A stretch of DNA of 55,227 bases from Gemmatimonadota bacterium (lineage in GTDB: Bacteria > Gemmatimonadota > Gemmatimonadetes > Gemmatimonadales > Gemmatimonadaceae). This document shows, piece after piece, positions 24,673-31,772 of this stretch; the first letter of the stretch is position 1; every line of letters begins with the position of its first letter. The notes below the pieces were generated by a model. That model searched no databases. It had not been told where the DNA came from and worked only from the letters and a program-made list of their open reading frames with translations. The stretch lies in assembly GCA_040389905.1 (NCBI GenBank), contig JAZJZK010000051.1:1-55227 (forward strand), read 5' to 3'. The translations under genes were made by a program, and so were the position numbers.

Positions 24673-25920
24673 ATGCACACATCCCGCTTGTTCTGTCGCA
24701 CTGCGCAGCGCGAAGGGCCTGCGTTTTCGATGGTAGTCAGTGTCGCGTTTGCGCTGACGCTTACAGCGTGCGGCGCCAGCGCTCCCTCGCAGCAATACGG
24801 CTACCTCGCACTCCTCGGCAACGACACCGTTTCGATCGAGCGAGTCACGCGGTCCGGCAACACCGTTGTGAGCGACGGAGTCGACCGATTCCCACGCGTC
24901 CGGCGCCGGCACACGACAATCACGCTCGGCGCCGATGGCGGAATCCAGCATCTCGAAATGGACATCACCACACCGAGCGAGCCGCCGGCGCAGCGCCTGC
25001 GCCACGTCGTGGCCGATGTCACGAAGGATTCGGTGAAAATCTCGAAGCGCGATAGCACCGGTGTCGTGAGGATCAACTTCGCGACGGGAGGCGTGCTCAC
25101 GATGGCGCACCTGCCGCAGGTGTACAGCCTCACGGATCTGTACTTCAGCGCCGCGTTGGCGAAAGCCGCGGCCACAGGTGTTGGCGTGGGCGGCACCGTG
25201 ACGCTGCACCAGTTCTACATCGACCGCGAGTTCGACCGTTTTCCACTGCATGATGGCATCGTGAAGCCATTGGCCGGTCATAAGGCAGAGCTTCAGCACG
25301 ATTGGTTGTCAGGCGCCGGCGAGGCGACCTTCGATTCGACCAATCACATGCTCACGTATTCCGGCGCGCGCTCGACGTATAAGGTGAACGTGCGGCGCCT
25401 CACCGAGTTGCCAGATGTACAAGCCATCGGCGAACGATTCGCCGCGCTCGAGACGAGCACCGGTATGCATCAACTCAGCGTTCGCGACACGGCGCGTGGA
25501 TCGATTGGCAATGCAGCGTTCACCGTGGACTATGGTCGGCCACTCGCGCGCGGACGCGTTCTGGTTGGCGACGTTCTTCCCATCGATCGGGTGTGGAGAA
25601 CAGGTGCGAATGCCGCGACGCAATTCTCGACGTCGGTGCCCATTACGCTCGCGGGCCTGAAATTGCCGGCGGGCTTGTACACGCTCTGGACCGTACCGCG
25701 CGAGAAAGGCGCGGACCTCATCGTGAACAAACAGACCGGCCAATGGGGTACCGGCTACGACGACGCGCACGACCTCGGCATGGCGTCGATGGCGACGGAG
25801 GTGCTGACGACGCCAGTCGAGAAGTTCACCATCTCGATCGCTCCGACGGATGCGCATCAGGGTGCGCTCGTGCTGGAGTGGGGCACGTTCCGGTGGACGG
25901 CGCCGATCGTCGTGCCGTGA
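24673..25920 (+). CDS. DUF2911-domain lipoprotein
   Basis: Lipobox LTAC (start may be 24730); C-terminal VDYGRPLARGR…WRTGANAAT…QWG. Confidence 0.8.
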   Translation: MHTSRLFCRTAQREGPAFSMVVSVAFALTLTACGASAPSQQYGYLALLGNDTVSIERVTRSGNTVVSDGVDRFPRVRRRHTTITLGADGGIQHLEMDITTPSEPPAQRLRHVVADVTKDSVKISKRDSTGVVRINFATGGVLTMAHLPQVYSLTDLYFSAALAKAAATGVGVGGTVTLHQFYIDREFDRFPLHDGIVKPLAGHKAELQHDWLSGAGEATFDSTNHMLTYSGARSTYKVNVRRLTELPDVQAIGERFAALETSTGMHQLSVRDTARGSIGNAAFTVDYGRPLARGRVLVGDVLPIDRVWRTGANAATQFSTSVPITLAGLKLPAGLYTLWTVPREKGADLIVNKQTGQWGTGYDDAHDLGMASMATEVLTTPVEKFTISIAPTDAHQGALVLEWGTFRWTAPIVVP

Positions 25921-25995
25921 ATGCTCCAGGCGTGCTTCGATTGCGTCAGGCGTTGCCTATCAGCATCTTCAAGGCGGCTCGACAATCCTGCGCTC

Positions 25996-26017
25996 GAGCT
26001 AACCGAGAGCTAACCGA
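25996..26017 (+). promoter_or_regulatory. Perfect 11-bp tandem direct repeat upstream of an orphan gene
   Basis: GAGCTAACCGA twice, ending 23 bp before ATG 26041. Confidence 0.5.
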
Positions 26018-26040
26018 AGCAACCACCGGGAGAGAAGGCG

Positions 26041-26610
26041 ATGCGAACGTTTGATTGGTCGTGCGACGTCAGGCAAGGATACGACCTCACGCCGGGCGCA
26101 CAGACCGTTTTCGGCTACATCACGGCGATGACCATCGCCGACACCGAGCTGTTGCCCGACCAGACAATCGCCAAAGACCCGATGGGATCCAGCCCCGTCG
26201 GCGCAGTTGCCGTGCTCAGTGAAGTGATTTTGGTGACGGGTCCAACCGGCTCGCTCCGGTTCCAAGGCCGCGTTTCGTTGGCCAATCAGCAATCGATCGA
26301 TGCGCTGGCGGTCAGCATTCAGGGCGAGGTCCCAGTAGCATTCACCTTCGACGTGTACGACTACGACGCATTGACGAAGCGGTACTTCAAGTCCGCTACG
26401 TCGGTCGATGCGACGACGCTGCATGGCACGCTCGCGGAAAGCCAAGGCGTCCCCGCACTGTCCGTGGGGAGCGAGCCGTCTGATGACGTACAGTCGCCGC
26501 TGAACTACGTGTTCGCGATTGGGATCAACGCAAAACCAGAAGATCAGGCAGTGATCGTCGCCTTCACCGCCACGAATTCGGCCCCGTTTCCTTGGGGAGA
26601 TCAAAGCTGA
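26041..26610 (+). CDS. Hypothetical beta-rich cytoplasmic protein (189 aa)
   Basis: Purine-rich RBS (GGGAGAGAAGG); protein-like composition; motifs DVRQGY, YDYD…KRYFKS, VQSPLNY; no signal peptide. Confidence 0.75.
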   Translation: MRTFDWSCDVRQGYDLTPGAQTVFGYITAMTIADTELLPDQTIAKDPMGSSPVGAVAVLSEVILVTGPTGSLRFQGRVSLANQQSIDALAVSIQGEVPVAFTFDVYDYDALTKRYFKSATSVDATTLHGTLAESQGVPALSVGSEPSDDVQSPLNYVFAIGINAKPEDQAVIVAFTATNSAPFPWGDQS

Positions 26611-26629
26611 ACGAACGCCGCTGGTACCG

Positions 26630-26659
26630 TTGCGAGACCATGCTGTGCCTGTGTATGAT
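26630..26659 (+). promoter_or_regulatory. Putative sigma70 promoter for the structured leader RNA
   Basis: TTGCGA (26630-35), N18, TATGAT (26654-59); the first hairpin begins about 5 nt downstream. Confidence 0.5.
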
Positions 26660-26663
26660 ACCC

Positions 26664-26783
26664 GTGGCTTGAAGGAAGCCGCCGGGTCCGCGGGAAGAGT
26701 CTAACTCACCTTCGTGTCATCCCGACGCTGTTCGGGCCATGACCTCATGCAGCCTGATTGCGGACCCAGGCACTGCATGGAGG
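26664..26783 (+). ncRNA. Candidate structured cis-regulatory RNA with two possible pseudoknots
   Basis: Stems GTGGCTT/AAGCCGC, GAGT/ACTC, GTCAT-CCCGA/TCGGG-ATGAC, ATGCAG-CCTG/CAGG-CTGCAT; loop GAAGG complements CCTTC; loop TTGCGGACC complements GGTCCGCGG; last stem abuts the GGAGG RBS. Confidence 0.6.
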
Positions 26784-26786
26784 CGT

Positions 26787-27884
26787 ATGTCTCACGTCCT
26801 GCCCACCCGCCCCAACCTGGAGCACTTTCGCGGCCAGGCCAAAACGCTTCTCGCCGAGCTGCGCACTGGCGACCTCGCAGCCGCGCAAGCGTTCATCGAT
26901 CACCTGCCGAAAGCTCGCGACCTCTCAGCCGAGCAGGCGCGATCCGCGGGCTTCCGCCTCGCAGACGCGCAGTCCGTCGTCGCGCGTCGCAGCGGATTCC
27001 CGAGTTGGACCGCACTCACACGACATGTCGAACACCTGCGGTCGCTCGAGGGAGCATGGTCCTTCGACGCGCTCCAGGTCGACGGGAATGACATGGCGCC
27101 CGCGTTGATCGCGCAGTCGATGCTGCTCTTCGATGGCGATCGCTTCCGCATGGAATCGCCCGAAGGGAACTACGATGGTCGGTTTGCAATCGACACATCC
27201 AGCGCGCCGATGCAACTCGACATCGAGTTCGTCGAGGGCCCGGAGGCCGGGAATTCGTCGTACGGAATCTTCGAACTCGCCGACGACCGCCTGACCATTT
27301 GTCTCGGCTTGGTCGGTGCCCCGCGGCCGATCGCATTCGCGACACAGCCTATGAGCGGGCACGCGCTCGAGCGTCTCAGTCGCACGTCGGCGCAGCGGCC
27401 GTCAGGGGTGACGGGCGGCATCGCTGCTCCGAAAGCCGAGGAAGTGGACGCTCCTGACTCGCCGGTGAGCCCGCACGATTTCTCGGCGACGACGACTCCG
27501 ATGTTGCGGCGCCTCGAGGGAGCGTGGGCGTGTGTGCGCATGGTGACGAATGGCGAGGAGATGAAGGCGGACTGGTTGCCCTTCGGATCCCGGACCACGA
27601 GCGGCAACGAGGCCACGGTGGTGTTTGGCGGCCAGGTCATGCTCGATGTGAAGATGCGGATCGATGAGGCGCAACTCCCGATCGCGGTTGACTACCTCCA
27701 TCTCCGCGGGAAAGACAAAGGCAAGGTGAGCTTGGGCATCATGGACTGGGTCGGTGACGACTGTCGCTTTCACGTCGCGAAGCCCGGCCAGGCGCGACCA
27801 ACGGATTTCTCAGCGCCTGGAGCGGGCGAGACGCTGAGCCAGTGGAAGCGTGTGCCAGACGCGACTCACTTTACTCGCACGTAG
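26787..27884 (+). CDS. Protein with an N-terminal LPxRPNLE…QAK helical domain and two TIGR03067-like domains
   Basis: GGAGG RBS; LPTRPNLEHFRGQAKTLL…AQSVVARRSGFPSW; duplicated LEGAW…G…ID…D…G…GI…L/F…RP..F units. Confidence 0.82.
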   Translation: MSHVLPTRPNLEHFRGQAKTLLAELRTGDLAAAQAFIDHLPKARDLSAEQARSAGFRLADAQSVVARRSGFPSWTALTRHVEHLRSLEGAWSFDALQVDGNDMAPALIAQSMLLFDGDRFRMESPEGNYDGRFAIDTSSAPMQLDIEFVEGPEAGNSSYGIFELADDRLTICLGLVGAPRPIAFATQPMSGHALERLSRTSAQRPSGVTGGIAAPKAEEVDAPDSPVSPHDFSATTTPMLRRLEGAWACVRMVTNGEEMKADWLPFGSRTTSGNEATVVFGGQVMLDVKMRIDEAQLPIAVDYLHLRGKDKGKVSLGIMDWVGDDCRFHVAKPGQARPTDFSAPGAGETLSQWKRVPDATHFTRT

Positions 27885-27946
27885 TTCAGTTAGAGGTCTT
27901 GCTCCCAGGTGGATCACCCAGTCGGGAATTGTTTTATTCATGCCGG

Positions 27947-29152
27947 CTAACTCTGCGGCGCCTGGACCATACCGTTACCGACGTCGTGCACAGTCATCCC
28001 GCTCGCCATGCCGTCCATTGTCGCGCGACCGGTAAGATTATCGGACAACTGACGCGCGCCACGTGGCCCGCTCTTCGAGAGTTTCTCCGCCCACAGCGCG
28101 GCGACTCCGGCGACGTGCGGAGTGGCCATGCTCGTGCCGCTCATCGACGTGACGCCCCCGCCACGTCGTGCGGACACGATGTCAACGCCAGGGGCTGCGA
28201 GCCGCGCGCCGACATTCGAGAATGGTGCCACGATGTAACCCTGCGGGCTGTTACCGACGGCCGCGACCGAGATGAATCCATCGGCGACCGCGGGCGGGCT
28301 GACAGCAATCTGGAAGTCCGGATTCTCGTCGCGGCGGCTTTCGTTTCCGGCTGCCGCGACGAGTAACGCCGACCGCGCGAAGGCCTCCTGCGCGGCAATA
28401 AAGGACGCGAGTCGCTCGAAGAGCCGCAAGTTGGCGCGATAACCGTCGAGCGCCATGGACGTCGCGAGCTCCGTCGGAACGCCCTCCTCTTCGAGCTCCT
28501 TTACATAACCCGGAAAGTCCATGCCGAGTGACATGGAGATCACATTGGCGCCAGTGGACACGGCCCACTGGATCGCGTCGATGATGACGTCGCTACCCCC
28601 GCCCTTTCCTCCGAGCACTTTGCCCGCGAGCAATTTCGTGACACCGCGCGCGACGCCGATCCGTTTGCCCTCCACATCGCGACCGAGAATCGTTCCGGTG
28701 CAGTGTGTCCCGTGACCATCCTCGTCCTCGTCGCTCGCGTCCGTGAAGTTCCTGCGCACGACCTCCACACCAGCGAACGCGCGATGTGCTGCATCGACGC
28801 CGGTGTCGAGGACCGCGACCACGATGCCGTTTCCGGTGAATGGGGACGTATGCGCACCGACTGCTTCGACGCCCCACGCCGTCTGTGCCGCCGAGAGTTC
28901 ACCGGCTCCGGTCGCGAGCCGCAGCGGAGCGATGAGCTTCATCGGAAACACGGGTGCGATGCCCATGATCTCCGGCTTTCGCGCCAGTTCCGCCGCTGCA
29001 CGCGGCGCGAACTCGCCGACTTCGACTCGCGGGAGTGTCGCCGGAGGAGCCGCACCACGGACTGCACCGCGCATTCCCCGTCGGGTGGCCTTTGGCATGG
29101 CGAACTTCTGGTGTTCCTCGGGACCGCGGAGGATCACATACCGAAGCGACAT
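27947..29152 (-). CDS. S8 subtilisin-like serine protease, no signal peptide
   Basis: VAVLDTG, HGTH, AAAGNE, GTSMATPHVAG; start re-assigned to 29152 (GAGGA RBS). Confidence 0.92.
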   Translation of the reverse strand: MSLRYVILRGPEEHQKFAMPKATRRGMRGAVRGAAPPATLPRVEVGEFAPRAAAELARKPEIMGIAPVFPMKLIAPLRLATGAGELSAAQTAWGVEAVGAHTSPFTGNGIVVAVLDTGVDAAHRAFAGVEVVRRNFTDASDEDEDGHGTHCTGTILGRDVEGKRIGVARGVTKLLAGKVLGGKGGGSDVIIDAIQWAVSTGANVISMSLGMDFPGYVKELEEEGVPTELATSMALDGYRANLRLFERLASFIAAQEAFARSALLVAAAGNESRRDENPDFQIAVSPPAVADGFISVAAVGNSPQGYIVAPFSNVGARLAAPGVDIVSARRGGGVTSMSGTSMATPHVAGVAALWAEKLSKSGPRGARQLSDNLTGRATMDGMASGMTVHDVGNGMVQAPQS

Positions 29153-29375
29153 ACGTCCTCGATCGATGAAGTGGACAGCGACGGCGCACTCGCAGTGATG
29201 CTCGGCCGTGGAGGCTGCGTAAGATAGGCCCGAGCGATCGATGGGCAATGCGGATAACGCATGGCATCTCCACGCGACGGGCACCAACTTCGTTACCAAC
29301 GCGTCCGTCAGGTGCACGGCATGCTCACACCCGTAAGAGGCCTGACCAACAGCACGCTGCACATGGAGATCCCAA

Positions 29376-31772
29376 ATGAGCGACGACACGCCAGCTGACG
29401 AGCGTTTGGCCACACACCAGGAGGCTGTGGACCTTCTCCGGCAGCTCGGTCACACGTCTCACCCTGCGTACACGGTCGCGTTGCTGCTCCTGGCCGAGGA
29501 AAATGCACGATGCGGCCATTCCGCAATTGCCGAGGCCCAATCACGCATTGCCTTGGCCATCCGAGCGCACATCGGCGGCGGGGACGACCGCCACACGGCG
29601 CTTGCAACCACGCGATTGGCGATGACGGGGCGCCCGGCCGCGGAGTCCGACGCAATGGCGTCGTTCATGAACCTGCCCGGCGAGCACCTAACGCATCTGT
29701 ATCAGTACGCCAAACTGTCTTTGGCGAGCGAAATGTCAGAGTGGGCGACAGCTCTCTTGTTCGAGCTCCTCTACCATTCGCGAAATGACGCGGCTCACGC
29801 GCGCCTGCACGTTCAGGTTTCGCTGGAGCTTGCGCAGATTGGCATTCGCGGTGGCGTGGCTGCAGCGAGACATGGCATGCCCGCTGAAGCCATCTTTGAG
29901 AGTGCGGAGGGTCTCATCGACGAGGCACTGGACGCGCACCGCAAGGCCGGAGGCGCCGCTGCCTTGGAGCGCGCGTTGGGAGACAGAGGCGAAAACGCGC
30001 CGGATCGGTACTTGGAACGTGCGGCCGTGCTTCGGGCCGAGCTGGCCGGCGCGCGCGGACATCGCGAGGACTCCTATGAGGCCCATCGCGTGGCGTCGGG
30101 ACTGCGGGCGAGATGGCGTACCGCCACCTCGCCATTCGAGGGGTACGCCGTGCACAACGTCTCGATGTGCATTGCCACGGGGCGATGGCAGGAGGCGTCG
30201 GCAGCATTGGAGGAATGGTCGACGGCGGACGATGAACAGCTCGATCGCGTCCTCGGGGGCGAGACCGAAGAGCGATTGATGGAGTATCTCAATCATTATC
30301 GCATCCTTACGCTGATTGCGATCTCGGGAGCCGCGCGCCACGATGCGACTGCGCAGTTTCGCGTTCATGCAATGAATATGGTTTTGCGGCGAAAGATGAT
30401 CGTCGCGGATGCCTTGCGTATGCGACAGGCGTTGCGGACGACCCCGGGCCAGTCGGATACGCTCGACGGCGACACCCCTGATACGGCTGGATTTGGGCTG
30501 CGGGGTGTTGATTGTGGCCGCGTCGCGCGAGCGCTCCAACCAGGGCAAGCCCTCGTCGAGATCGTCCGTGCTCCCATCGCGGACTTCACCGCAACTCCGG
30601 CGCAGCGCTCCTTCTGGTCTGCCGCGCGCTATCTCGCCTTCGTACTTCAACCAGACCGCGCTGCGGATATCCTCGTCATGGATATCGGCGATGCGCGAGA
30701 GATCGAGATGGCTATCTGGGAATGGCTTCGGCACATGCCAGGCATGCTGGACAATGATGGACGCCTGGATGGTACAGCGGACCAGGATCTCCTGGACGCC
30801 CTGAACCCTGACACCAACCTCGGGCTTCTTTCAGTCACGTATTCTGGCGTGGCGCTTCGACAGCTGCTGGTTGATCCCATTTTGGAGCGCGTCGGCCCGG
30901 TGGACAAGCTGATCGTCGCGCCCGACGGCTTGATGTGCGCCGTGCCGTTGGGCGCACTTCCCGACGTCGTCGACACATGCGTTATCCAGTATCTCTCGAG
31001 CGGTCGTGATATCCTCCGGTCGTATGATCCCGACGTCCCTCGCAACCCGCCAGTCGTTATGGCGAACCCGGAGTACGGGCTGCCGGAGGACGTGCGAGGC
31101 AACGTCGCTGATCTGCGTGAAGACTGGCGTGTTCCCTTCGAGCCACTTCCAGCGACTCACGAGGAAGGGTTGGCTCTGTCTCACATGCTGCAGGTACCCC
31201 TGTGGTTCGGGAACAATGCGACAAAAGCGCGAGTGATGGCGCCGCCCGCTCCTCGAATACTCCACATTGCCACACACGGCTACTATCGGCCGCTGGACGA
31301 CCCGCGAAGTGCCACTCCCTTCGAGTTGCTGAGGCGGTGCGGCCTCGCCCTCGCTGGAGCGAACTGCACATCGTTCGATGAGCCATCCAGGGACGACGAC
31401 GGACTGCTCACCGCAGAGGATGTCACGCGTCTCGACCTACGCGGCACGGCGTTGGTCGTCCTGTCGGCATGTGAGACTGGTCTCGGTGCCATTCGCGCTG
31501 ATGAGGGTGTCTTCGGCCTGCGACGCGCCTTCATCATCGCAGGCGCGCGGGCGCTTGTCGTTAGCCTCTGGAGCGTCCCTGATTCCGAGACACGTGATCT
31601 CATGCTGTCGTTCTACGAGCACCTTACACGAGGGATGGGAGCCGCAACGGCCTTGTCGGTTGCACAGCAGGAAATGCGCAGGAAGAAAGAGCACCCGTAC
31701 TTCTGGGCGGCTTTCATCTGCATCGGCGACGATACGCCGCTCGATGATTGGGGTATTGCCTGCCGGAGCTAA
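29376..31772 (+). CDS. CHAT-domain (caspase-like) protein with N-terminal TPR-like helical region
   Basis: IVAPDG, HIATHG and VVLSACETGLG catalytic dyad, VSLWSV, HPYFWAAF. Confidence 0.9.
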   Translation: MSDDTPADERLATHQEAVDLLRQLGHTSHPAYTVALLLLAEENARCGHSAIAEAQSRIALAIRAHIGGGDDRHTALATTRLAMTGRPAAESDAMASFMNLPGEHLTHLYQYAKLSLASEMSEWATALLFELLYHSRNDAAHARLHVQVSLELAQIGIRGGVAAARHGMPAEAIFESAEGLIDEALDAHRKAGGAAALERALGDRGENAPDRYLERAAVLRAELAGARGHREDSYEAHRVASGLRARWRTATSPFEGYAVHNVSMCIATGRWQEASAALEEWSTADDEQLDRVLGGETEERLMEYLNHYRILTLIAISGAARHDATAQFRVHAMNMVLRRKMIVADALRMRQALRTTPGQSDTLDGDTPDTAGFGLRGVDCGRVARALQPGQALVEIVRAPIADFTATPAQRSFWSAARYLAFVLQPDRAADILVMDIGDAREIEMAIWEWLRHMPGMLDNDGRLDGTADQDLLDALNPDTNLGLLSVTYSGVALRQLLVDPILERVGPVDKLIVAPDGLMCAVPLGALPDVVDTCVIQYLSSGRDILRSYDPDVPRNPPVVMANPEYGLPEDVRGNVADLREDWRVPFEPLPATHEEGLALSHMLQVPLWFGNNATKARVMAPPAPRILHIATHGYYRPLDDPRSATPFELLRRCGLALAGANCTSFDEPSRDDDGLLTAEDVTRLDLRGTALVVLSACETGLGAIRADEGVFGLRRAFIIAGARALVVSLWSVPDSETRDLMLSFYEHLTRGMGAATALSVAQQEMRRKKEHPYFWAAFICIGDDTPLDDWGIACRS

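Follow-up and report, generated by a model that had tools for sequence, protein, structure and literature searches.

A widespread double-pseudoknot leader RNA found almost only before genes for a small basic N-terminal module, and its possible role in an autoregulatory cassette

Autogenous translational operators are known from ribosomal-protein mRNAs, such as those of S15 (the rpsO pseudoknot) and L20, and in these operators the leader mimics the functional RNA target of the protein. Pseudoknots that sequester the Shine-Dalgarno (SD) sequence are also found in the SAM-II and preQ1-II riboswitches. For the COG3860 RNA (Rfam RF02940), which Rfam types as Cis-reg, we know of no established function; the RNA is reportedly owed to Weinberg and colleagues. 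The name COG3860 is absent from the main text of Weinberg et al. 2017.

The locus described here lies in a stretch of 55,227 nucleotides of a Gemmatimonadota contig, called the window; close homologues carry names that suggest Gemmatimonadaceae. A double-pseudoknot leader RNA of ~120 nt, at about 26666-26786, constitutes the untranslated start of a gene that encodes a basic N-terminal module followed by other domains (the cargo). Like ribosomal-protein operators and the class of 'protein binding candidates' defined in the main text of PMC11109978, the locus combines a structured leader over the ribosome-binding site (RBS) with a basic, plausibly RNA-binding product, and the conserved leader in every case precedes, in cis, the gene whose product is the putative binder; in logic, the system may be said to resemble the ribosomal-protein operators. 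Unlike those operators, its module occurs in fusion with a wide range of unrelated cargoes, and several paralogues per genome are frequent. As in SAM-II and preQ1-II, a pseudoknot is coupled to the RBS, junction nucleotides are conserved, and a complex conserved fold is tied to an expression platform (the predicted SD stem); in contrast to these riboswitches, the gene association tracks a protein domain and not a pathway, there is no Rfam match, and the downstream genes lack a shared ligand-related function, whereas all evaluable ones share the module. The features of the locus are the following:

26630..26659, forward strand: predicted sigma-70-type promoter (-35 TTGCGA at 26630-35, 18-nt spacer, -10 TATGAT at 26654-59)
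26664-70/26676-82, forward strand: P1 hairpin, 88.6% paired in the alignment, two of four pairs changed on both sides
26671-75, forward strand: P1 loop GAAGG, the 5′ strand of pseudoknot 1
26685-93, forward strand: 5′ strand of pseudoknot 2, GGTCCGCGG, with a core GTCCGC (26686-91) that shows no variation in pattern-selected rows
26694..26708, forward strand: purine linker, P2 hairpin (arms 26697-700/26704-07) and an A, all conserved
26709-13, forward strand: 3′ strand of pseudoknot 1, CCTTC, with changes on both sides in five of five pairs and the highest mutual-information pair
26714..26742, forward strand: variable linker, with a possible hairpin of this locus (26716-25/26732-43) that is not a family feature
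26743..26783, forward strand: final long hairpin, with anti-SD arm CCTC-ATGCAG-CCTG and inner stem 26747-56/26767-78
26757-66, forward strand: loop of the final hairpin, containing GCGGAC, the 3′ strand of pseudoknot 2
26779-83, forward strand: SD sequence GGAGG, part of the 3′ arm of the final hairpin
26787..27884, forward strand: open reading frame of 365 aa (ATG at 26787, stop at 27884)
26787..27041, forward strand: N-terminal module, residues about 1-85, basic, five predicted helices
27036..27884, forward strand: cargo of two TIGR03067 domains (E 1.2e-29, two stretches, the best being residues 84-185)

Every element listed in the initial annotation could be located in the window sequence. 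The complementarity claimed for the P1 loop GAAGG and CCTTC (26709-13) is present and covaries in the family. The 9-bp pseudoknot 2 was also rightly proposed, except that its 5′ strand had been placed at 26684-92 and lies at 26685-93; terminal G-U pairs account for two of the nine. The statement that the final stem ends at the RBS proved wrong: CCTC (26743-46) pairs with GAGG (26780-83), so the final stem covers the RBS. The GTCAT-CCCGA hairpin exists in the window sequence but falls in the variable linker and is not shared by the family, being weak at one related locus (L277) and missing at another (L255). The fold energy of the isolated leader is unremarkable (z -1.63, with 10 of 200 shuffles equally good); the evidence that goes beyond chance is conservation and covariation.

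The promoter TTGCGA-N18-TATGAT is present as originally described and is the sole promoter-like site in 26400-28200, where shuffled sequences average 0.2. Across 117 loci of the family, 105 TANNNT matches fall in one 10-nt bin, compared with 0-8 in each of 15 other bins, and this -10-like hexamer at one fixed distance places the putative transcription start at P1, presumably near 26666 in the window. The position of the promoter puts the putative start upstream of the stems. No terminator was found after the leader RNA.

A DNA-only pattern scan of three of 64 parts yielded 120 loci, from which a total of ~3000 is estimated. By their record titles they belong to Acidobacteriota, Actinomycetota, Pseudomonadota, Verrucomicrobiota, Gemmatimonadota, Myxococcota, Planctomycetota and other phyla, with cultured hosts represented by records of Streptomyces, Burkholderia, Nonomuraea and Amycolatopsis. 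The covariation alignment (plain MAFFT) has 66 rows: the window, 58 of the 120 pattern loci and seven protein-led loci. In this alignment 87.0% of cells pair versus 78.5% when shuffled, and none of 500 shuffles, which leave the relatedness of the rows in place, reaches any of the measures; 22 of 34 pairs vary on both sides, slid controls drop to 40-50%, and the top four mutual-information column pairs are predicted base pairs. P2 is 97.3% paired with changes on both sides in three of four pairs; such changes are also seen in eight of eight pairs of the SD stem and three of five of the upper stem. The covarying upstream structure that had been predicted from the window alone is borne out, most strongly in pseudoknot 1 and the SD stem. 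Six pairs of pseudoknot 2 are invariant in the pattern-selected rows because the search pattern itself fixed them, and compensatory variants were recognized by eye in the protein-led loci L152, L171, L179, L182, L183 and L274. Partner-swap tests gave a mean of 3.73 versus 2.96 for pseudoknot 1 (110 of 120 loci, those with a detected P1) and 5.4 versus 4.8 for the SD stem.

Folding predictions for 116 loci give the SD sequence a mean unpaired probability of 0.06, versus 0.38 when the anti-SD arm is shuffled; values below 0.2 are obtained at 101 of these loci, and at 19 of 116 after shuffling. The SD sequence is predicted to be paired both with and without the pseudoknots, so that folding is silent on the ON state and activation is as compatible with it as repression. 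One minimal leader (L159, G063:C3:38957-39172, minus strand) has P1, pseudoknot 1 and P2 and lacks the last hairpin; here the SD region itself is a possible pairing partner of the single strand, and the cargo of its module gene is probably VOC-like (by eye).

The leader and the module are tightly linked, as had been proposed. The module lies within 600 nt downstream of the leader in 116 of the 120 pattern loci; three of the other four end within 72 nt, and in the fourth the module start halts after 21 codons. A covariance model found exactly four leader copies in the genome of the window, each before a module gene, so that four RNAs and four module genes lie side by side. In 61 related genomes it found 62 leaders, of which 44 adjoin a known module match, 14 more are followed by a module, one precedes a frameshifted module start and three lie at contig ends. 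Neither the 120 pattern loci nor the 62 model hits include a leader in front of an intact gene without the module, or any free-standing RNA copy; wherever the locus is intact, the start codon marks the end of the RNA. Searched from the protein side, residues 1-88 have four matches in the same genome and 57 in 22 of the 61 related genomes: 44 adjoin an RNA-model hit, two are internal second copies, three are at contig ends, one (L002) is a broken remnant, two (L024 and L263) have a degenerate leader, and five (L264-L268) are leaderless. By these comparisons the leader is a real, conserved and widespread predicted RNA that occurs almost only before genes of module proteins. Plain co-inheritance of adjacent elements also predicts a linkage between a leader and the first domain behind it.

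Searches of phylum samples found the module in 9 of 151 genomes (centred on a Streptomyces genome), 9 of 201 (Burkholderia-centred; one of the nine, L184, is a false match) and 8 of 61 (Acidobacteriaceae-centred). A profile of the module matches 9,842 protein clusters at 50% identity with E up to 0.001; a metagenome search with a single protein as query returned one locus. Some proteins contain two or three copies of the module. Many module genes are frameshifted or truncated, with the leader kept or lost (L002, L059, L038, L163, L254, L255, L257), which suggests a fast turnover. A phage or mobile-element origin was rejected, with one viral-contig match and no recurring family of upstream neighbours (80 loci, the largest cluster comprising three). 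That sole match in the viral collection (L278, 7568-9539) consists of a leader and the first part of a module gene, cut off by the contig end, and may be host DNA.

The module is characterized by the conserved motifs LP..P.LE..[KR]..AK..L and L.DAQ..[IV]AR..GF.SW, and its structural model has five helices (pLDDT 93). Of 53 proteins, 49 have a basic module and one has a basic cargo. Against solved folds, Foldseek gave no E below 5 and VIA-align a best Z of 4.2 (rmsd 5.5, 66 aligned); there was no clear match to known RNA-binding folds in the PDB (ANTAR, HTH and others). The window protein has no Pfam match, and its TIGR03067 cargo has no solved relative by sequence.

The suggestion in the initial annotation that an ~80-aa module of this kind occurs on unrelated proteins, including ankyrin-repeat proteins, agrees with a survey of cargoes. 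Among 60 open reading frames of at least 200 aa from the first 80 pattern loci, 56 encode ankyrin repeats (one weakly), one a leucine-rich repeat (LRR) protein and one a Ser/Thr kinase, and two are unassigned; therefore, the TIGR03067 cargo is a minority swap. Two further loci combine it with the leader, one from a metagenome contig (L277) and one from an Opitutaceae genome (L152). Further cargoes are Clp_N, ClpX zinc finger and FliM-like domains (among 59 of the best 150 profile hits) and, among predicted-structure neighbours, VOC and methyltransferase clusters. The cargo is interchangeable, as had been suggested, in that all these types and TIGR03067 occur behind the module, but the strong predominance of ankyrin repeats restricts that description. 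Cargoes that serve in substrate recognition by proteases (Clp_N, ClpX zinc finger, Lon N-terminal) occur in P0147, P0151, P0172, P0224, P0239 and L197, and a protein-quality-control theme among the cargoes is possible.

Seven of 21 modules weakly match PF20066 (Glyoxalase_8; best E 2.4e-4), and hhalign aligns the module with the N-terminus of PF20066 (~55 residues) at a probability of 95.9 (E 5.4e-9, 51 columns). By profile comparison the module is a remote homologue of this N-terminus, from which the window module differs by an inserted helical segment; the window protein itself gives no PF20066 hit (Pfam threshold 23.7 bits). In a single phylum, 37 of 401 genomes contain PF20066 genes; the 46 matches over the cut-off include the latter half of one split gene. 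Inspection by eye of the 45 gene starts revealed a leader of the same topology at 41: P1, a six-base strand, P2, a linker resembling GGUGAA, the complement of the P1 loop, and lastly a hairpin that pairs through its loop with the six-base strand. Three starts are leaderless, two of them truncated, and one has a variant leader (L235, G369:C114:23200-24524) with a 9-bp second pseudoknot and no GGUGAA, before a borderline PF20066 gene. Under a rule that required at least five of six pseudoknot 2 pairs, 34 leaders were extracted; three mis-anchored rows and one near-copy were dropped, which left an alignment of 30 rows. Pseudoknot 2 is 99.4% paired, a figure that is partly circular since the rows were selected for these pairs; the variety of matched pairs, with changes on both sides in four of six, is not circular. 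Pseudoknot 1 scores 4.4 versus 2.9 when swapped (25 of 30). In contrast to the window leader, these leaders have the GGUGAA linker and a variable pseudoknot 2 sequence. They have no Rfam match, and the PF20066-type leader is uncatalogued. Cargoes of the PF20066 genes (L189-L233) include VOC, Lon substrate-binding and DUF3471-like domains, as well as a ClpX-type zinc finger recognized by eye.

Of the PF20066 matches below the threshold, three are DUF2087 genes with a COG3860 RNA leader. The N-termini of DUF2087 proteins match PF20066 with a profile probability of 96.9, and a direct comparison with the window-type module is weak (profile probability 10), so that the link between DUF2087 and the module is transitive, through PF20066. 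BtmL, a DUF2087 protein (PMC7113386), has a different predicted N-terminus. The COG3860 RNA resembles the window leader in its succession of P1, a GC-rich single strand, P2, a conserved short linker and a strand complementary to the P1 loop. In all seven loci over the RF02940 gathering threshold of 42.5 bits (L236-L242), a 6-7 bp complement of the single strand occurs in a downstream hairpin loop, located 96-116 nt from the model start and hence beyond the 54-nt model (shuffles give 17% per locus). L238 also shows a pyrimidine arm capable of pairing with the SD region. From these comparisons the RF02940 model appears to cover only the 5′ half of its RNA architecture; the window RNA family is about 120-130 nt long. 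RF02940 has no match in the window, none in 26600-26830 at E up to 10, and none in ankyrin-type or PF20066-type loci. The conserved letters of the two families differ (GUCCGCGG-AAAGGG and CCCA versus GCGUCGCC and GCUAAA), as does the gene context (the module with TIGR03067, versus DUF2087 (COG3860) genes). The window RNA is outside RF02940 by score and by gene, yet its predicted architecture is the same. The ankyrin, PF20066 and DUF2087/COG3860 types form three subfamilies, whose RNAs are distinct variants on a common topology.

Rfam scans of the window leader returned no family, only chance miRNA and snoRNA rows; the initial annotation was right that no named family matches, but a related family exists in RF02940. 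The Solibacter-1 RNA (PMC2864571) was rejected as a candidate: its supplement rows have a different sequence, its placement is non-cis-regulatory, and among the rows listed the core words are confined to unrelated ones. No description of the window RNA was found in the openly accessible literature. The RNA was not found in the main texts of PMC2864571, PMC5737381, PMC8632094, PMC11109978 and bioRxiv 10.64898/2026.10.21.760802; the supplements of PMC5737381, PMC11109978 and the preprint may list it, and the 1.5 million clusters reported in the preprint could contain it unremarked.

The fold, the SD pairing, the module linkage, the exchange of cargo and the parallel subfamilies were all established by comparing sequences. 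With about an even chance of being correct, they can be read as a portable autoregulatory RNA-protein cassette in which the module binds the leader and exerts negative feedback on its own translation. The last hairpin would cover the SD sequence, and the basic module would hold it shut by binding the 5′ pseudoknotted core, to which pseudoknot 2 would tie the SD hairpin. The contact would probably be made by basic residues of helix 1, such as R15 and K19, and the AR..GF.SW helix-turn with the conserved junction of P1, P2 and the pseudoknot. Translation would stay low until a partner of the cargo draws the protein away and releases repression; promoter, leader and module would travel as one portable 5′ unit that acquires different cargo domains by fusion.

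Genes that have lost the leader provide a natural test of such binding. The Lys/Arg of helix 1 (K19 in the window) is present in 65 of 66 leader-bearing genes versus 7 of 12 with a lost or degenerate leader. Together with most of the neighbouring basic residues, it is lost in all four members of the one long-branch leaderless clade (support 100/100) and in L266; this pattern fits binding in cis, with few events, namely one clade and L266. In the tree (86 columns) the leaderless label needs about nine changes. The basic residue is kept without an intact leader in L024, L180, L269, L270 and L173, and is absent from L183, in which the leader is present. In the four-member clade (L264, L265, L267, L268) helix 1 has acidic or neutral residues at the positions of the basic ones.

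A translational riboswitch or physical sensor of a metabolite, an ion or temperature, behind which the module is merely co-inherited, is an unlikely account, although by the criteria in the main text of PMC5737381 its two pseudoknots, invariant unpaired nucleotides, SD-covering stem and spread over many phyla are riboswitch-like, and the related RF02940 is typed as Cis-reg. It is countered by the failure to find the leader before any intact gene without the module, by the lack of a common metabolic theme among the cargoes, and by conserved single strands that vary among the three subfamilies in step with the module, unlike one ligand pocket. It is rather improbable that the module instead opens the leader (positive feedback), or that it remains bound to a processed leader and forms with it a stable ribonucleoprotein acting with the cargo. 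An SD sequence predicted to be closed by default would need an opener, and proteins with two or three modules and the minimal leader of L159 are in keeping with this account; against it, the RNA has neither free-standing copies nor a terminator and runs to the start codon in all intact loci. Least probable is a fixed dampener or 5′ stabilizer that sets a low constitutive output, with a module of unrelated function (protein-protein contact) in a hitch-hiking 5′ block: elements that lie side by side are inherited as one, most cargoes (56 of 60) are ankyrin proteins homologous to each other and several genes keep a normal module after leader loss, but a dampener needs the SD hairpin alone, whereas the two pseudoknots and the invariant junction bases persist in many phyla and in all three subfamilies, and basic residues decay in the old leaderless clade.

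The autoregulatory cassette, if the module does bind the leader, would be a widespread device of post-transcriptional control outside the ribosomal proteins. In its broadest form, to which somewhat less than an even chance is given, the ankyrin-associated module and the N-termini of PF20066 and DUF2087 would be an unrecognised RNA-binding superfamily which, with its cognate leaders, forms a portable feedback cassette in thousands of genes across many bacterial phyla and turns any cargo into a self-titrating sensor; the orphan COG3860 RNA would thereby receive its partner and its 3′ half, and the pairs of the subfamilies would be orthogonal. A 120-nt RNA and a domain of 55-85 residues could then be fused to any protein, the unnamed domain and the misnamed Glyoxalase_8 N-terminus would acquire a function, the COG3860 RNA would become testable with its own protein and with the full-length RNA in place of the 54-nt half, and small, possibly orthogonal RNA-protein pairs would be available for synthetic feedback circuits.

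No link was seen between the cassette and its neighbours in the window (24673-31772 and 1-55), which are a DUF2911 gene, an unassigned 189-aa open reading frame, a convergent subtilase gene (27947-29413), a CHAT-domain gene and, at 1-55, a cut tRNA. Elsewhere in the family, at L182:532-1036, five tRNA genes are immediately upstream of a divergent leader and module gene, and a partial tRNA is downstream.
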